A DNA stretch of 64,000 bases, taken from the IMG/VR virus record IMGVR_UViG_3300046474_000470, positions 1-64,000 of that record. One strand, 5' to 3'. Of this stretch, positions 272 to 40,577 are shown piece by piece (position 1 is the stretch's first letter; every line of letters starts with the position of its first letter). This stretch comes from a virus. The translations under genes and the position numbers were made by a program. The notes below the pieces were generated by a model. The model was given only the letters and a program-made list of their open reading frames with translations. It did not search any database and had not been told where the DNA came from.

Positions 272-3200
272 ATGAGCGACAACATTGGTTTGCATCTTGA
301 CTCATCGGGCGATGACGGCGTAAATCGCATCACCAGTGCGATCGATCGTCTGCACGAGTCGCTCATCCGTCTCGGCGAGAATTCGGCCGTGGGCCGCCTG
401 GCCCAGCAGATGGAGCTGATGCAGGCCACCATGGTCACCGGCTTCGCCGGTCTCGCCTCCACCATGGAAAAGATGGCCGGCGACCTGGCCACGCGCCAGG
501 CGCGCGCGATCGAGGAAGGTGGCGACAAGGTCGCCGCAGCACTCGACGCCAGCGGCATGAAGGCACAGATGGCGCGCGAGCGCCAGATGGACCGTCAGAT
601 CAGCGCCGACAACGCATTCAATCACGCCCGCCTGGGTATGATCGAAGGCGCGCGCGAGCGAGAACTCGAGCTGGAGAATCTGTTCGAGCGCACCCGCGAC
701 GACGTCGCCAAGAAGGGACTCGCCAGCCGCATCCTTGACTACGATCGCGAGGAACAGATCGCACTCGCCTGGGAGCAGTCGCTGCAGAAGAGCCGCGACC
801 GGGAACTCGCTGGCGAAGCCCTGTTCAACCGGGTGCAGGCCGAGTTGCTGCAGCAGCGCCAGTCGGCCCAGATTCTTGACCTCGCACGCGAGGAAGAGCT
901 GGCCCTGCGATGGGAGCAGTCGCTCGAGAAGGTCCGCGAAGCGGAGCTGGCTGGCGAGGCCCTGTTCAACCGTGCGCAGGCAGAGATGCAGCAGCAGCGC
1001 CAGTCGGCCCAGATCCTCGACTACGCCCGGGAAGAAGAACTGGCAGCCCGCTGGGAAGCGTCGCTGCAGCAGAGCCGCGAGAAAGAGCTGGCTGGCGAGT
1101 CCCTGTTCAACCGTGTGCAGTCTGAGCTGCAGCAGCAGCGCGTGGCGGCCCAGATCCTGGACTATGCGCGCGAAGAGCAGCTGGCACATGAGTGGGAAGC
1201 TGCGCTGCAGCGCGCCCGGGAAAAGGTCCTCGCTGATGAGGCCCTGTTCGACCGCACGCGCGCCGAGATGGCCAACCGCGCGCTGGCTGAGCGCCAAGCC
1301 GCGGCTGAACGCGACGCGCGGCTGAACGTCTCCTACCGCATGGCGTCGCCGACGACGCAAGCCCAGATTCAGGCGCGCGCTGTTGTCGCCGCCGACGAAG
1401 GGCTGGATCCGGCCAAGCTGGTCGGCACGAAGGCAGCCGCTGATGCTGCCGGCAAGTCGCTGGCCGAGCTGCACGCGATCATCGAGAGCGGGCGCGCGGC
1501 AACGCGCGGCGCCGCCGCCGACAACAAGACCCTGGCCACGTCGTTCTTCGAACTCGATGGCGCGCTGCGTCAGGCCGAGGGCGCTTTCCGTGGTGCCGCC
1601 CACCAGGCTGGCATCTATGGCTTCCACCACGGCCAGCTGATCGCACTGCTCGCCGGCGGCGCCGTCGCCGCCGGCCTGCACCACATCGCCGAGACCGGCG
1701 CCGAGGTGGAGTACCAGCTGGCGTCGCTGAACGCGCTGTCCGGCGAGACCGAAAAGATCGACCTCAACAAGTTCATCGGCATTTCAGCCGGCACGCTGAC
1801 CGGCCTGAAGGATGCGGCCGAGGGCATGCACGCGCTGGCGCAGGCCGGTCAAGGGCAGCAAGCCGCCTTCGCGGCGCTGCCGGACGTGATGCGCCTTGCC
1901 ACCTTGGGCGAGATGTCCGTCGCCCAGGCCTCCGAGATGGCGGTCGAATCGATGCACGCCTTCGGCAAGGAGATCACGGATCTCGGCGACATCGGTGACA
2001 TCCTGGTCGCCGTCGGCGCCAAGTCCAACCTGTCGGTGCACAAACTGGCCGAAGACATGAAGAGCGCAGCCGTGACCGGCGCGTTGTTCAACCTCGACAT
2101 GAAAGAGATCACGGCGACGGTCGGCGTGCTGGCCGAGCGCGGCCTGACCATCCAGCCGCTGTCGTCGGCGCTGAACAAGCTGTACGAGCCATCGGCCAAG
2201 ACCGCCAAGGTCATGAAGGAGTGGCACCTCGACGTCAAGGACGGCGAGGGCAACCTGAAAAACTACTCCCAGTTCATGGGTGAGCTGGCCGCCAAGGTCA
2301 ACGAGTTCCGGGTGCCGGCCGACGCGCTCAAGCAGCTCGGCATGTCGACCCAGTCGATCAAGGCGATGGAGGTGATGACCCAGCACTTGGGCGACTACAA
2401 GCACCTGCTGCACGAGGCGGAAGACGCGCATGGCAAGATGTTCAGCGCGATGATCGAGAAGGAAGACACGGCCGAGGGTTCGTGGAAGCGCCTGGGCAGC
2501 ACGGTCGATGGCGCATTCGTCAGCGCTTTCAAGGAAGCCGAGCCGGTCGTCCGCAGCGTCGAAGAGTCGCTGATGAACTTTGCGGCATCGCCGGAGACTA
2601 TCAACGCACTGGGCAATATTGCCGCCGGCATCGCCCGCCTGACCGAGACCGCGCTCGAGAACATCGGCACGATGTTGAAGATGGCCGCCGCCTACGGCGC
2701 CATGCGCATCCTCACCAGCCTGACGACGATGCTCAACGAGTATATGGTCGCCAAGCGCGCGGCGATGGCTTTGAGCGTCCAGAACACCGTGGTCGTGCAG
2801 GCAGAAGCCGTCCAGCTCGAGCTGTTCGCGGTGGCTGAAAACTCGGCTGCGGCCGGCGCCGGGCGACTTGCCGTTGCCACCGAAGTGGCCGCCACCGGCA
2901 TGCGCATGCTGACTGCCTCGATGGGCTGGATCATGATCGCCATCGTCGCTGCGACCACCGCAGTCGAACTGCTGTCGGGCAAGCTTGACGAGAACGAGAA
3001 GAAGAAGCGCGAGCAGCAGAACACCTACAACACGACCACCGACGCCATCCAGCGCGAGATCGATCGCCTGAAAGAGCTGGAAAAGCAGCTGGACCTGACT
3101 GGCGAAACCGGCACTAAGTCGGCTGCCAAGGTGCAGCTGGCGTTTGCGAAGCTGAAAGAAGATCAGGCCAAGAGCAACCTCGAAGCCGTGGAAGCCTCGT

Positions 3201-35845: not shown

Positions 35846-35858
35846 TTCCTACAGGCAA
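35846..35858. promoter_or_regulatory. Pseudo-palindromic site TTCCTACAGGCAA
   Basis: Reverse complement TTGCCTGTAGGAA matches 219-231 with one difference and is also followed by N8-TAGA. Confidence 0.5.
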
Positions 35859-37291
35859 AGTAAATCTTTGATGCCCTGCTTCGAGCCGGCTGCCCGGTTG
35901 ACCAGCTCGTCGTTGTTTTGCAGGCTCTTGAGCAGCTTTTCCTGGATCGTGCCGCGCGCGATCAGGAGCCTGTTGTTGGGCGGGTAGCGCTGGCCTTTCC
36001 GGTCGATCCGGCCGGTCGACTGGATGAACGGGATGGTCGTGGTCGGGATCTGGATGAACGCCGCCTCCCAGCACATGTACTGCGGGTTCAGGCCGGCGCC
36101 GGCGCTGCCCGGCTGCGCCGTCAGGCACACCGTGTCCGGATCCTCCATGAACTGCTTGATCGACTTCTTCGAATCGACCTCGGAGAACGCCATCACGCCG
36201 CGCTTGCCAATTTTCGCAAGTCGGGCATCCATGTGTTCGCCGATCAGCCGGGATACGCTGCGGTGCGTGGTCCAGAGGATCAGCTTGCTGGCCGGCCGCG
36301 CCACGCCGTCGATCAGCGTGGTGCCGCCCAGGTCGATCTCGTCGGCGATCTCGTCGACCAGGTCGAACACCGCGGAGCGTTTCGTCGGGTCGCCGGCGAA
36401 GTAGCCGAAGTCCAGTACGATCTGCTGCGCGGCGTGATATAGCCTCGTCGCCGTGGTGGCGTCGATCTTGCCGCCGTCGTCCAGCAGCAGCAGCTGCTCC
36501 TCCATCAGGCGCTTGTACAGCGCCATGTGCTCCTTCGACAGGTCGTAGTAGATCGGGATGACGCGGCCCTTCGGCAGCGCCGAATGCACCTCCTCCTTCG
36601 TGCGGTGGATGCGCCGCAGGTTCAAGTTCGCCTGCAGCAGGTCGAGGTTGTGCCACTCGGTCGGCTGCTTGAAGATATCGCGCTCCTTGACGTGGATGTT
36701 CTCGAACTGGGTATAGGTCGAGTAGACGTCCGGCGAATTGAGCTTGATGTAGGCGTAGTGGTCGCCCACCTTGCTGGCGATCGTGCCCGACATCAGCAGC
36801 AGGTCGCGCGACATCGAGAAGCTGCGTACGTGCTTGAACAGCACGCCGCGGCCCTTCAGGTTCTGGCATTCGTCGACCACGGTGAACACGTTGGCGTGTG
36901 CCATCTCCTTCGACAGCCGCTGGATGTCATTGTTGAAAAGCTGGTAGCTGGTCACCAGCCACTGCGCGCCGTCCAGATCCAGCTGGGCGCGCACTTTCGG
37001 CGAGCCGGTGTAGTCGACGACGCGGCCGGCGCCCGGAATGCTCTCCAGCCAGGCCACCCACTGGGCGACCAGGATGGGCGGCACCAGGATCACGTTGATG
37101 TCGTTCTGCAGCATCAGGGCGACGGCCGTGGCGATCACGGTCTTGCCGTAGCCGACAGGAAGGTCGGCCAGCGCGCGGCGCCAAACTGCGGCGCGCACGA
37201 TGTCTTCCTTCTGCAGCTGCTCCAGCACCATCACGCCGCCCATCGGGTGGGGGAACGGGTAGGTCTCGATGACCTGTTCGAGCGTCAGCAT
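35849..37291 (-). CDS. SF2 (SNF2-like) helicase
   Basis: VGYGKT, VDECQ, MSGT, GAGLN and QSTGRIDRKGQ. Confidence 0.9.
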   Translation of the reverse strand: MLTLEQVIETYPFPHPMGGVMVLEQLQKEDIVRAAVWRRALADLPVGYGKTVIATAVALMLQNDINVILVPPILVAQWVAWLESIPGAGRVVDYTGSPKVRAQLDLDGAQWLVTSYQLFNNDIQRLSKEMAHANVFTVVDECQNLKGRGVLFKHVRSFSMSRDLLLMSGTIASKVGDHYAYIKLNSPDVYSTYTQFENIHVKERDIFKQPTEWHNLDLLQANLNLRRIHRTKEEVHSALPKGRVIPIYYDLSKEHMALYKRLMEEQLLLLDDGGKIDATTATRLYHAAQQIVLDFGYFAGDPTKRSAVFDLVDEIADEIDLGGTTLIDGVARPASKLILWTTHRSVSRLIGEHMDARLAKIGKRGVMAFSEVDSKKSIKQFMEDPDTVCLTAQPGSAGAGLNPQYMCWEAAFIQIPTTTIPFIQSTGRIDRKGQRYPPNNRLLIARGTIQEKLLKSLQNNDELVNRAAGSKQGIKDLLCL

Positions 37292-37728: not shown

Positions 37729-37925
37729 GCGACGGCGCGCTCGAGCGCAGGGTTGCGCGCCGGCAGCGGGTGCCAGCCCATGTAGCGCCGGTTGCTGCCG
37801 GTGGCGGGACCTTTCCAGGGCCCCACCGTGACAGTGCCGTCGCGCTCCAGCAGCAGCACGCGCTCGTTCAACGGTGCCGGGTTGACGTAATCGAACTGCA
37901 GATCGTTGCGGGTGTGGTTTCTCAT
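37725..37925 (-). CDS. Small DUF551-like protein
   Basis: PAPLNERVLL...GWHPLP motif. Confidence 0.6.
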   Translation of the reverse strand: MRNHTRNDLQFDYVNPAPLNERVLLLERDGTVTVGPWKGPATGSNRRYMGWHPLPARNPALERAVA

Positions 37926-38323
37926 TTCTTCTCCGGTGGTTTGCTGTCGTTGACGAATCGGGTCGGCGGCGGTGGGGGCGGCGCCGGCATCTGCCGCGGC
38001 GGCGGTGCGCCGATGGTCAGCGCTTTGATCCCAGCCCGCCCGAACAGGACTTCCTGGCAGTTGCGGCAAGCGTGGGTGTGGTTTTCAACATAGGCATGCG
38101 CGCCGCGCGCGGCGTCGCCGGCCAGCATCGCCGCGACTTCCTCGGCGTGGCCGACCTGCCTGCAGACGATCTTGCACTTTTCATAGCCTTCGCCCGGTGC
38201 GCGCGGGCAGACAGGCTGCGGGCTGGCGCACCAGTTCTCGCCGACGAAGCGACTACCCTCTGGCGTGATGATGGTGCAGCGCACCTGCAGCTTGGCGCAG
38301 GGGCCCAGGGTTCCGGCGCTCAT
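37922..38323 (-). CDS. dCMP/cytidine deaminase-like protein
   Basis: HAE and ACRNC zinc motifs. Confidence 0.8.
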   Translation of the reverse strand: MSAGTLGPCAKLQVRCTIITPEGSRFVGENWCASPQPVCPRAPGEGYEKCKIVCRQVGHAEEVAAMLAGDAARGAHAYVENHTHACRNCQEVLFGRAGIKALTIGAPPPRQMPAPPPPPPTRFVNDSKPPEKK

Positions 38324-39237
38324 TCAGATGCTCCCGTAGAAAGCTTCGATGAACGCTTTCGCGGCGTAGACGTTGACTGCATTGCCGTAGCCCCGCAGGA
38401 GTCCCACGCGGCCGGGTACCCCATCAGCCAGCGGCTGTGTGCCGGGTTCAACAGGCCGCCACTTGCTGTCCCGGCATGCGAGCCAGTCAGCAGCTGCCCA
38501 GTAGCCGTTAACCGGGCCGGGCCCTGCACGCTGATCCCATCCGGCGGGAATGCCGTCAGCACCGCGCCATGATTCAGCGTGAGGTTCTTGGTCGCGAAGT
38601 CCGGCGCCGGTGCCCGGTTGCCGTCGCAGGCTGTCGGCGTGCCCCAGCCCGTCAGCTGCGCCGCCATGCCCACCGTCACCTGGTTGGAGCAGCGGGTGCC
38701 CGCCTTGGCCTCGTTGGCGATCGGCGTGGGCCAGCCGCACAAATTCGCTTGCCGTGGCAGCTGATCCAGCCGCTCCTTGCCATTGTCCGACCGCGGCCTG
38801 ATGTCGGCGCCCGAGTCCTTCCAGTCCCGCGAGGTTGGCGTCACCCAGCCGGCCTGCCCAATAGCAGCGGTCGCGGATGTGCGGGGCACCGATGCCCGCA
38901 GACGGGAACGCGACCGCCCCGACGGCGTAGCCCAAGGCTTCCAGGTCAGCTTGTACAAGGTCGATCCAAGGGTCGACGAGACTGCTTGCAACCTGCTCTC
39001 CAAGGATTTCTGCAGGACGTCCGACGCGGGCAAGGTGGTGGAGAGCGGGCCATAGGTGCCGCTCGTCATCAAACCCTGCACCTTCGCCTGCCGAGGAGAA
39101 AGGTTGGCAAGGAGCGCTGCCCGTCCACACTCGACGGCTGTCAGGGATGCCTGCAAGTCGGAGAGCGTAGGACCAGCCGCCGATGCCGGCGAAGAAATGG
39201 CACTGGGTGAATCCGGCAAGATCTCCGGGTGTGACAT
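38320..39237 (-). CDS. C5 methyltransferase beta polypeptide, nested in the +1 frame of alpha
   Basis: GAAAGGAG 8 nt before the ATG at 39237; three GWxTP modules; LNPAHSRWLMGYP (motif IX-like); stop overlaps the downstream ATG. Confidence 0.8.
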   Translation of the reverse strand: MSHPEILPDSPSAISSPASAAGPTLSDLQASLTAVECGRAALLANLSPRQAKVQGLMTSGTYGPLSTTLPASDVLQKSLESRLQAVSSTLGSTLYKLTWKPWATPSGRSRSRLRASVPRTSATAAIGQAGWVTPTSRDWKDSGADIRPRSDNGKERLDQLPRQANLCGWPTPIANEAKAGTRCSNQVTVGMAAQLTGWGTPTACDGNRAPAPDFATKNLTLNHGAVLTAFPPDGISVQGPARLTATGQLLTGSHAGTASGGLLNPAHSRWLMGYPAAWDSCGATAMQSTSTPRKRSSKLSTGASE

Positions 39238-39346
39238 CGGCAATACTCCTTTCGTCGACCACGCCCGGCGCGATCAGGTTTTCTTTAATCAGCTCGCGCA
39301 GCCAGGCAGCCGCGCCCTTGTCGAACTCGTTGTAGTACGCGGTCAT
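38324..39346 (-). CDS. C5 cytosine DNA methyltransferase, alpha polypeptide (lacks motif IX)
   Basis: FFAGIGG (I), GSAPCQPFS (IV), GEQV (VI), PHIRDR (VIII), GYGNAV (X); ATG in an ATGA overlap. Confidence 0.88.
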   Translation of the reverse strand: MTAYYNEFDKGAAAWLRELIKENLIAPGVVDERSIADVTPGDLAGFTQCHFFAGIGGWSYALRLAGIPDSRRVWTGSAPCQPFSSAGEGAGFDDERHLWPALHHLARVGRPAEILGEQVASSLVDPWIDLVQADLEALGYAVGAVAFPSAGIGAPHIRDRCYWAGRLGDANLAGLEGLGRRHQAAVGQWQGAAGSAATASEFVRLAHADRQRGQGGHPLLQPGDGGHGGAADGLGHADSLRRQPGTGAGLRDQEPHAESWRGADGIPAGWDQRAGPGPVNGYWAAADWLACRDSKWRPVEPGTQPLADGVPGRVGLLRGYGNAVNVYAAKAFIEAFYGSI

Positions 39347-39651
39347 TTGAGCAGCGCCTTGAAGCGGGCATCGTGGTCCGCGCGCACCGCGCGCAGCTGG
39401 TCGAACTGCGACTGGCTGATGGCGTAGAGCACGTCGGCTTCCGCCTTCGTGTCGCAAAGCGCCACGACGGTGTGGAGGGCGCAGTAACCGCCCTCGTCCT
39501 CGCCGCGCCTGTTCTTGAAGTAGACGCGCTTTCCCGACCGGCGGATCACTTCGCGCGGCGCGTCCGTGATGTGATCCCGCAGCATCGGGGTCTGCAGGAT
39601 CCACTGCCCGGGCGTGATCTCGGTCAGCGGGCCGATTTCGCGCACGCCCAT
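39343..39651 (-). CDS. Hypothetical protein
   Basis: MGVREIGPLTEITPGQW...; GGAGG RBS. Confidence 0.65.
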   Translation of the reverse strand: MGVREIGPLTEITPGQWILQTPMLRDHITDAPREVIRRSGKRVYFKNRRGEDEGGYCALHTVVALCDTKAEADVLYAISQSQFDQLRAVRADHDARFKALLK

Positions 39652-40514
39652 CACGCCTCCTGCACCAGGCGATCGAGCAGGATGCCCAGCTCGCGCGTCA
39701 TCAGCGCGATGTCGGCGTCGAAGCGGTCGACGTCCTTCTCGGCGTCGCGGCCTTCCTGCATGACGTCGAGCGGCTTGATCTTGCGCAGCTGGCTGTTCTG
39801 GGTCATGACGAACGAAAGGCGGCTGGCGAAAGTCATGGCCACGGCCTCGACCACGGCGCCGGCTCCCAGCTGGCCGCTCACGTCGTCGCCCGAGAGCTGG
39901 GCACGCTCGTACTTCACCAGCTTGCCGCGCTCGCCCGGGTGGCGCAGCACCGCGGCGTCGTCGACGCTGAATTCGAACGGCGCCTCGTCCTTGACCCACT
40001 CGGTCACCACCTTGGCGCGCGGCCAGCTGACGTCGCACAGGCCCAAGTCGTTGCGGCTGTCCTGCACGTACTTCAGCAGCACTTTGATGATGTCGTCGCA
40101 GGCGCTGTTCGAGGTCGAGTCGATCACGAGGCGGTGCTGATCCTGGTCGATCCAGATCAGGGTCGTGCGGCTGGTAGTCAGGGCGCGCGGCAGCAGCTCG
40201 TCGAAGGCGCGCTCCTTGAGTTCCTTCTTGGCCTTCTTGCCGGGCGGGAAGCCCTGCTGTTCTTCCAGTTCTTTGCAACGGGCTTCGACCACGGCCGCCA
40301 CGGCCGACGCCGGGATCACCTTCTTCTCGACCTTGAAGCGCAGCAGGATGTGCTTGCCCTGGCGGTAAGCGATCTCGTCGTCGCGCACCGGCACGAAGCC
40401 GGACGACATCAACTCGTGGGTACCGACAGGAACGAAACGAGCAGCTTCAAGCTGCTCGATGGGGAATTGTGCCTTCGGGCTGATGCCGTAGACGGTTGCA
40501 TTTTTGATCCACAT
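39651..40514 (-). CDS. rdgC: Recombination-associated protein RdgC
   Basis: MWIKNATVY, SSGFVP, EKKVIPAS, LLPRAL and FDADIALMTREL. Confidence 0.9.
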   Translation of the reverse strand: MWIKNATVYGISPKAQFPIEQLEAARFVPVGTHELMSSGFVPVRDDEIAYRQGKHILLRFKVEKKVIPASAVAAVVEARCKELEEQQGFPPGKKAKKELKERAFDELLPRALTTSRTTLIWIDQDQHRLVIDSTSNSACDDIIKVLLKYVQDSRNDLGLCDVSWPRAKVVTEWVKDEAPFEFSVDDAAVLRHPGERGKLVKYERAQLSGDDVSGQLGAGAVVEAVAMTFASRLSFVMTQNSQLRKIKPLDVMQEGRDAEKDVDRFDADIALMTRELGILLDRLVQEA

Positions 40515-40548
40515 AGGGTTGGACTTTTCTGGTGGGAAAGGGATTATT

Positions 40549-40577
40549 AGGGTAAGCAAACTCTTCTGCTGTGTCAA
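40549..40577 (-). promoter_or_regulatory. sigma70-like promoter TTGACA-N17-TACCCT upstream of rdgC
   Basis: - strand TTGACAcagcagaagagtttgctTACCCT; shares AGTTTGC with the promoter at 32333-32361. Confidence 0.6.

Follow-up and report, generated by a model that had tools for sequence, protein, structure and literature searches.

Can one stretch of phage DNA encode both subunits of a single enzyme in two overlapping reading frames? This question is raised by a locus in the IMG/VR virus record IMGVR_UViG_3300046474_000470, of which we analyzed positions 1 to 64,000 (64,000 nucleotides (nt); hereafter the window). The window belongs to a complete phage record, 84,887 bp long and bearing direct terminal repeats. 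It carries a gene for the catalytic chain of a cytosine-5 (C5) DNA methyltransferase, here called alpha, and, in the +1 frame of this gene, a second long open reading frame (ORF), here called beta. The initial annotation, made from the letters alone, had proposed that the two ORFs encode the subunits of one enzyme. Its coordinates and the dual-frame arrangement were borne out; the strand, which it had left unstated, is the minus strand for both ORFs. The comparative and modelling evidence presented below supports the reading as a two-chain C5 methyltransferase encoded in overlapping frames. We consider it likely that the locus specifies an orphan phage DNA cytosine-5 methyltransferase whose two chains are translated from one messenger RNA (mRNA).

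The alpha and beta ORFs share about 915 nt. Beta starts 109 nt into alpha and covers about 90% of the alpha gene, and the third sense frame of the locus contains about 17 stops. The alpha ATG overlaps the TGA of an upstream ORF of 102 amino acids (aa) in an ATGA arrangement. At the 3' end, both frames stop at the start of the next gene; the letters read ...ATC TGA ATG A..., exactly the junction that had been described. The coordinates of all features are given in Table 1.

Table 1. Features of the methyltransferase locus and their positions in the window
Feature	Position	Strand	Remarks
Alpha coding sequence	38324..39346	-	340 aa; ATG at 39346, TGA 38326-38324; C5 methyltransferase catalytic chain
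Beta coding sequence	38320..39237	-	305 aa, +1 frame of alpha; ATG at 39237, TGA 38322-38320
Last +1-frame stop (TGA) 5' of the beta start	39274..39276	-	
Shine-Dalgarno (SD)-like GAAAGGAG	39246..39253	-	alpha codons 32-34: E32-R33(AGG)-S34(AGT)
Beta ATG	39235..39237	-	inside alpha codons D37-V38 (GAT GTC)
Alpha motif I, FAGIGG	39176..39193	-	alpha 52-57; F52, A53, G54 and G56 invariant; weak alignment to M.HhaI FAGLGG
Alpha motif IV, PCQ, catalytic Cys80	39104..39112	-	invariant; aligned with M.HhaI PCQ
Alpha motif X, GNAV	38375..38386	-	alpha 321-324; G321, N322 and A323 invariant
Alpha codons 1-84 and 325-340			pattern of selection on alpha only; third-position entropy 0.9-1.5
Putative double-constraint segment 1	38867..39094	-	alpha codons 85-160 (motifs VI, VIII) over beta ~49-124
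Middle segment	38519..38851	-	alpha codons 166-276 (unconserved Gly/Ala/Arg-rich linker) over the variable W-x-T-P modules of beta
Putative double-constraint segment 2	38375..38518	-	alpha codons 277-324 over beta ~241-288
Four W-x-T-P motifs of beta	38635..38934	-	beta residues 102, 131, 169, 198 (38934-38923, 38847-38836, 38733-38722, 38646-38635)
Motif-IX-like LNPAHSRWLMGYP of beta (LNP..WLMGYP)	38413..38451	-	nearly invariant in 61 sequences
Stop/start junction TGA-ATG-A	38320..38326	-	alpha stop, then the start codon of the next gene (38323-38321), with which the beta TGA overlaps
133-aa ORF, small deoxycytidine monophosphate (dCMP)/cytidine-deaminase-like protein	37922..38323	-	HAEE...CRNC zinc-deaminase-like signature

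Conservation of both reading frames

To both chains there correspond families of their own in the PHROG database, each labelled 'DNA methyltransferase': alpha matched phrog_363 (5.6e-78) and beta phrog_1008 (1.9e-31). In the Pfam database only alpha was matched (PF00145, 4.1e-11, over residues 73-171). At E<=0.001 the beta family comprises 18,322 cluster representatives. The 90% collection contains over 5,500 of its proteins, and among the 120 matches listed there none carries a Pfam domain. By tblastn the beta frame was found in 237 phage records and the alpha frame in 399, and in the shared records the two match at the same loci.

Each of the 80 related viral loci (53-67% GC) has an open stretch of 259-444 codons in the +1 frame of alpha, which in most of them ends near the alpha stop. 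As a rule, the +1-frame stops are confined to the first 9% and the last 8% of the gene; among the few exceptions is locus L004, with a stop at 0.63 of its length. The +2 frame of the related loci contains on average 15 stops. The same is seen at lower GC content. In gene 58 of phage N15 (GC 0.52) the +1 frame is open for 243 codons and the +2 frame has 24 stops. The +1 frame is likewise open in Vibrio phage Fayden (GC 0.51) and in epsilon15, Salmonella SW3, Bas71 and Bas74; in phages of 51-58% GC with an open +1 frame, the third frame has 14-24 stops. Sequencing error was rejected as an explanation, as the layout recurs in hundreds of independent genomes.

None of 200 shuffles of alpha among synonymous codons reached the 317 codons of the open +1 stretch in the window; their maximum was 313 and their mean 194. 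Applied locus by locus, this comparison is only moderately discriminating (35 of 81 loci exceeded all 200 shuffles) because the amino-acid sequence of alpha itself limits the +1-frame stops. Region-wise tests gave a sharper picture: (i) upstream of the beta ATG, the 71 loci contain 147 +1-frame stops, which is the rate expected under the alpha-synonymous null (2.18 per locus); (ii) from the beta ATG to motif IV there are none in 71 loci; (iii) from motif IV to motif VIII there are none in 70 loci, against 1.05 per locus under the null (summed log10 P = -52.6, the loci being treated as independent); and (iv) in the unconserved middle of the gene, 60 loci lack any stop in the alpha frame, where the beta-synonymous null gives 1.98 per locus (summed log10 P = -66, obtained in the same way). 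Since alpha is free of stops across a middle that is not conserved, it must be read through to motif X. Thus, the region-wise tests in both directions indicate that both frames are held open by selection and that the +1 frame is not a chance opening. The expectation that homologues would keep both frames open therefore held at the 80 loci, with no beta-frame stop in the tested regions 3' of the ATG.

Start signals of beta

The putative SD sequence GAAAGGAG is separated from the beta ATG by a spacer of 8 nt, TATTGCCG. It had been described as built from rare AGG and AGT codons of alpha, and the codon counts agree: in six genes of the window AGG makes up 5% of the Arg codons and AGT 7% of the Ser codons, and codon 33, which lies in the SD, is the sole AGG of alpha.

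To see how these signals fare in homologues, we counted codons at 71 loci with the D.R[SD]I.DV motif and compared them with the gene-wide share. The Asp codon that provides the beta ATG is GAT in 64 of the 71 loci (38% gene-wide). For GGAG, the Arg codon is AGG or CGG in 56 of 71 loci (34% gene-wide) and the Ser codon is AGY in 60 of 67 (49% gene-wide). The codons that form the internal SD and ATG are thus favoured across 67-71 loci, as the initial annotation would predict, and the synonymous codon choice of alpha keeps both the ATG and the GGAG of beta.

Independent gene calls of beta homologues mostly begin at position 1 of the beta profile. A different start has to be assumed for gene 58 of phage N15 (L084, 993-1988): its +1 frame has a stop at nt 190, so the beta start must there lie close to the conserved LMT..G motif, some 30 residues downstream of its position in the window. 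The low conservation of the N-terminal ~30 residues of beta fits this later start.

Distribution of constraint along the gene

To find out which frame is selected where, nucleotide entropy was computed by codon position along the gene. The ends of alpha follow the pattern of a single coding frame (Table 1). In segment 1 the third positions of alpha are unusually quiet, with an entropy of 0.50-0.77 in five of six 12-codon windows and 1.10 in codons 97-108; the bases of alpha codons 85-160 would so be constrained also by beta ~49-124, which here reads RQAK..LMTSGT..LGSTLYKLTWK.W.TPSG..RLRAS. In the middle segment the most frequent residue of alpha reaches a frequency of 0.2-0.4, and well-aligned beta windows show the entropy order of a coding sequence in the beta frame (position 2 < position 1 < position 3). 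In segment 2 entropy is low at all three codon positions (0.20-0.83) and both chains are nearly invariant, alpha as GP.NG.W..DW..CRDGKWRPVEPG...RLR.YGNA and beta as ARLTASGE.LTGS.AG..SGGQLNPAHSRWLMG.P..W. When the five closest relatives were compared, the most variable codon position switched likewise along the gene. Judged from these patterns, the two segments appear to be under purifying selection in both frames at once.

The catalytic chain

Alpha had been described as carrying motifs I, IV, VI, VIII and X and lacking motif IX. The alignment with M.HhaI and a set of 61 homologues, over which motif conservation was judged for both chains, confirm this. The five motifs are invariant or nearly so, GEQV (VI) and HIRDR (VIII) align with M.HhaI by profile, and no motif IX was seen in alpha. 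The alpha profile matched M.HhaI at 4.9e-14, and hhalign gave a probability of 87% against E. coli Dcm.

In the AlphaFold2 model of alpha, residues 1-170 are mostly confident (with a dip at 82-93), residues 173-276 have a predicted local distance difference test (pLDDT) score of about 30, and the C-terminal helix is again confident. Foldseek matched the model to C5 methyltransferases with a probability of 1.0, and M.HhaI and M.HaeIII are among the enzymes matched by alpha. A VIA-align comparison with M.HhaI gave Z 12.9 and a root-mean-square deviation (rmsd) of 3.7 over 168 aligned residues, reaching M.HhaI residue 322. Alpha is thus predicted to have the C5 methyltransferase fold with a disordered middle.

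It should be mentioned that alpha residues 1-37 (39236-39346, minus strand) contain motif II/III-like sequences, YYNE.D..AA.WL and D.RSI.DV, which precede motif I. Distant alpha matches in Paenibacillus, Mycobacterium and Gordonia phages cover the motif IV-VIII core only and include no close relatives.

Motifs I and IV of alpha are separated by only about 22 residues. Ahead of the motif I strand the model has a beta-alpha-beta unit (residues 2-31), and M.HhaI residue 34 is the first to be covered by the structural alignment. The model thus suggests that the S-adenosylmethionine (AdoMet)-binding half of alpha is permuted, with the order II-III-I-IV.

The second chain

The conserved parts of beta are an N-terminal block, the W-x-T-P motifs, the first of which sits in this block, and a nearly invariant C-terminus, ARLTASGE.LTGS.AG.ESGGQLNPAHSRWLMG.P..W. 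Nearly all relatives (L001-L080) have two to six W-x-[TS]-[PT] modules, and the length of beta varies accordingly. On sequence grounds, this variable number resembles a cassette-like turnover of recognition modules. A short form of beta with a single variable module was observed in E. coli phage Bas74.

The C-terminus of beta had been called a motif IX look-alike. By eye it does resemble motif IX, and in the complex model (see below) it is predicted to pack on motif X; homology at the sequence level was not detected by Pfam scan, PDB sequence search or hhalign against Dcm. Modelled alone with AlphaFold2, beta reached a mean pLDDT of 56, too poor for a fold search.

We also looked for fused or single-chain forms. 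None of 19 longer beta relatives has PF00145, and the best 150 representatives are all of beta length. Some of the longer relatives continue into PF01555, PF10926 or PF12705; these extensions are probably read-through into neighbouring genes.

Predicted complex of the two chains

Co-folding of alpha with beta, which had been put forward as a check, gave a complex score of 0.93 in all three runs; the highest score among three controls was 0.00. Of solved complexes, 58 of 80 attain this mark, as do 2 of 110 mismatched pairs. Agreement between the runs extended to at least 93% of contacts, with a partner pLDDT of at least 74.

In the predicted interface, beta residues 40-139 and 255-289 touch alpha residues 125-168 and 275-338 and the N-terminal helix of alpha. 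Its densest part is segment 2, and beta 265-274 adjoins the surroundings of GNAV, alpha 316-327. The bases that encode beta residue j also serve alpha residues j+36 and j+37; none of the contacts with the lowest error joins residues related in this way. The complex model supports, though does not demonstrate, that alpha and beta bind each other.

Proposed mechanism and alternative explanations

Taken together, these data are consistent with the following scheme. Translation of alpha would be coupled to the upstream gene, and that of beta would begin internally, with a GGAG and an ATG of its own. Alpha would contribute the core for AdoMet binding and catalysis (motifs I, IV, VI, VIII), a disordered linker and a C-terminal piece ending in motif X, the sequence of the linker being a mere shadow of the beta coding. 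The N-terminal scaffold of beta would pack on alpha, its motif-IX-like helix would pack against motif X, and its variable W-x-T-P array would most likely read the DNA target. The assembled chains would form one enzyme that methylates the phage DNA, presumably to evade host restriction. We infer the assembly of the chains, target recognition by beta, formation of 5-methylcytosine in DNA and the anti-restriction role from the comparative and modelling data.

Several observations weigh against this two-chain scheme. Beta has no Pfam family at E<=1, and neither the beta profile nor beta 240-300 retrieved any entry in PDB sequence searches. With hhalign, the beta profile reached a probability of 0.08 against E. 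coli Dcm and its C-terminus was not aligned to motif IX. The P values of the region-wise shuffles are overstated, because the loci over which they were summed are related. The alignments used for the complex model lie outside the calibration of the tool and both derive from the same bases; its score may also be due in part to a likeness to solved single-chain C5 methyltransferases, as tends to happen with halves of split enzymes. Finally, the first ~30 residues of beta, counted from the window ATG, are dispensable in the N15 lineage, and the exact start may vary between lineages.

The conserved pieces lie along the DNA in canonical order, with LNP..WLMGYP (38451-38413) just 5' of GNAV (38386-38375) in the other frame. 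They could accordingly be read into one polypeptide by two programmed frameshifts, +1 after motif VIII and -1 after the motif-IX-like segment, which would restore motifs I-VIII, the target recognition domain (TRD), IX and X. We regard this as very improbable: it would need neither an alpha middle free of stops (60 of 60 loci) nor a beta frame open up to a conserved ATG and GGAG (71 of 71), and beta 49-124, which lies 5' of any shift site, is itself under selection and in the predicted interface. We know of no precedent for two efficient opposite shifts in one gene. The +1 ORF might alternatively be an untranslated or non-functional by-product, a long frame tolerated in GC-rich DNA whose conservation is borrowed from alpha. 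Such DNA does yield many long spurious ORFs (e.g., 38569-39210 on the plus strand), the single-locus shuffle discriminates only moderately, and beta is without a Pfam family. Yet the frame remains open at 51-52% GC, with 20-24 stops in the third frame; beta is conserved precisely where alpha is not; stop avoidance shifts sharply at the beta ATG; and alpha shows constraint on its synonymous sites at the SD, at the ATG and in the two segments. A PHROG family and thousands of cluster representatives of its own likewise speak against a by-product, to which we give very little credence.

Another alternative accepts the assembly of the chains and places the difference in the chemistry. The enzyme would not be a simple protective DNA 5-methylcytosine methyltransferase: its substrate might be RNA, the group it places on C5 might be a different one, or it might share a pathway of nucleotide or DNA modification with the adjacent deaminase-like gene. 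This ORF is translationally coupled to both chains and is kept in L003 and L004; a DNA C5-carboxymethyltransferase (8yf3) is among the top structural matches of alpha, tied with M.HhaI; and no restriction enzyme gene lies nearby. Against this, motifs IV, VI and VIII align best with DNA enzymes of the M.HhaI type, the deaminase link is limited to the closest relatives, and orphan C5 methyltransferases are common in phages. We therefore hold a different chemistry to be unlikely, and retain the two-chain DNA methyltransferase as the preferred reading.

Comparison with known C5 methyltransferases

The catalytic fold of alpha, with motifs I, IV, VI, VIII and X, is like that of the monomeric enzymes M.HhaI, M.HaeIII and E. 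coli Dcm; unlike alpha, these are single chains with the TRD and motif IX in frame. The C5 methyltransferases of Bacillus phages SPR, phi3T and rho11s are orphan single polypeptides with tandem recognition modules in their variable region. The enzyme proposed here is similarly a phage orphan with a modular variable region, but those of the Bacillus phages consist of one polypeptide.

The closest known case is M.EcoHK31I from E. coli HK31 (recognition sequence YGGCCR; Lee, Kam and Shaw, 1995), a two-polypeptide C5 methyltransferase whose alpha gene contains the coding sequence of the beta chain in a different frame (PMC2836561, PMC3404938). Its alpha chain has motifs I-VIII as well as X, plus the predicted TRD, its beta chain has motif IX only, and internal starts in the beta frame are functional (PMC2836561, PMC3404938). 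The initial annotation held that the phage uses the same overprinting. This applies to the nested frame of beta, which is encoded in the other frame within the alpha gene in both systems; the subunit layout differs, the recognition region being placed in beta here. Compared by description, the phage locus differs from M.EcoHK31I also in that alpha 166-276 is unconserved and predicted to be disordered and in that beta has variable modules and a conserved scaffold. This scaffold overlaps alpha motifs VI-VIII, unlike the beta chain of M.EcoHK31I with its motif IX only. Moreover, M.EcoHK31I is part of a restriction-modification pair, whereas the phage gene is an orphan.

In M.AquI (CYCGRG), alpha comprises motifs I-VIII together with a portion of the variable region, and beta the rest of this region and motifs IX-X (PMC3404938). 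The two systems have in common a C5 methyltransferase composed of two chains with the split in or near the variable region. In contrast to the linear split of M.AquI, motif X of the phage enzyme is in alpha and the genes overlap by ~915 nt.

Annotation of the family and its significance

The initial annotation had also expected that gene callers would drop one subunit. This is true of most GenBank records, which annotate one frame only, sometimes the beta frame; both frames are annotated in phage K1H (ORF29 and ORF28 'Mte8-like', 2010) and in Xanthomonas phage PhiXhv-5. In Burkholderia phage vB_PR2a (L081, 1282-2343), the coding sequence annotated as 'putative metabolic enzyme' corresponds to the beta frame with an upstream extension, and alpha is unannotated; a gene for an N6/N4-type methyltransferase directly follows. 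A literature search (overlapping-frame phage cytosine methyltransferases, 'Mte8', BcepC6B, Kagunavirus) found no paper in which the family is described as an enzyme of two chains. Stx phages have a two-subunit methyltransferase that proved to be unrelated; it is of the MT-A70 type, and its partner is encoded by a separate gene upstream (PMC10810198).

We lean slightly towards a broader view, namely that the family represents a very large class of phage C5 methyltransferases, obligate heterodimers that have essentially gone undescribed. In this class a same-strand overlap of ~900 nt would encode both subunits, with two segments under purifying selection in both frames. Recognition modules (two to six W-x-T-P) would be gained, lost and swapped in the shadow of a disordered linker, leaving the catalytic chain unharmed, and phages N15 (gene 58) and epsilon15 would carry an unrecognised second subunit.

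In double-stranded DNA phages, long same-strand overlaps with both frames selected are rare, and standard gene callers exclude them; here the products of the overlap appear, in addition, to be subunits of one enzyme. If this is true, thousands of phage and prophage annotations as 'DNA methyltransferase' or 'hypothetical protein' are half complete, and the annotated frame expressed alone would give a dead or non-specific enzyme. This would bear on methylome work, on the prediction of phage escape from restriction and on applying these enzymes as tools. The locus would also offer a natural test case in which the same bases encode two folded, interacting segments and a disordered linker shelters a fast-evolving recognition domain.

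Neighbouring genes

The neighbours of the methyltransferase locus are genes for RdgC, the 102-aa ORF, the deaminase-like ORF, a 147-aa ORF and an SNF2 helicase. Family searches of these neighbours revealed no nuclease family and no restriction enzyme gene.

The ORF downstream of the junction had been named a deaminase gene. It is coupled to the stops of both methyltransferase chains, and its identity as a deaminase is a lead only: the Atlas search gave feature values of 0.92-0.93 and a template-modelling (TM) value of 0.72 to small viral clusters partly carrying PF00383, and no match was obtained in Pfam, PHROG or PDB sequence searches. The two close relatives L003 and L004 have the same deaminase-like gene and the same junction. 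In L001 the same gene is present with its ATG overlapping the TGA of alpha, and in L002 the junction letters are the same with a different gene downstream. Thus, the deaminase-like gene is restricted to the closest relatives, and more distant loci have other neighbours.

It should also be mentioned that the methyltransferase lies within a DNA-metabolism block, which includes an RdgC homologue (39651-40577, minus strand; PF04381, 2.9e-71) and an SNF2-type helicase (35849-37291, minus strand). Successive genes of this block are joined by overlapping stop/start codons.

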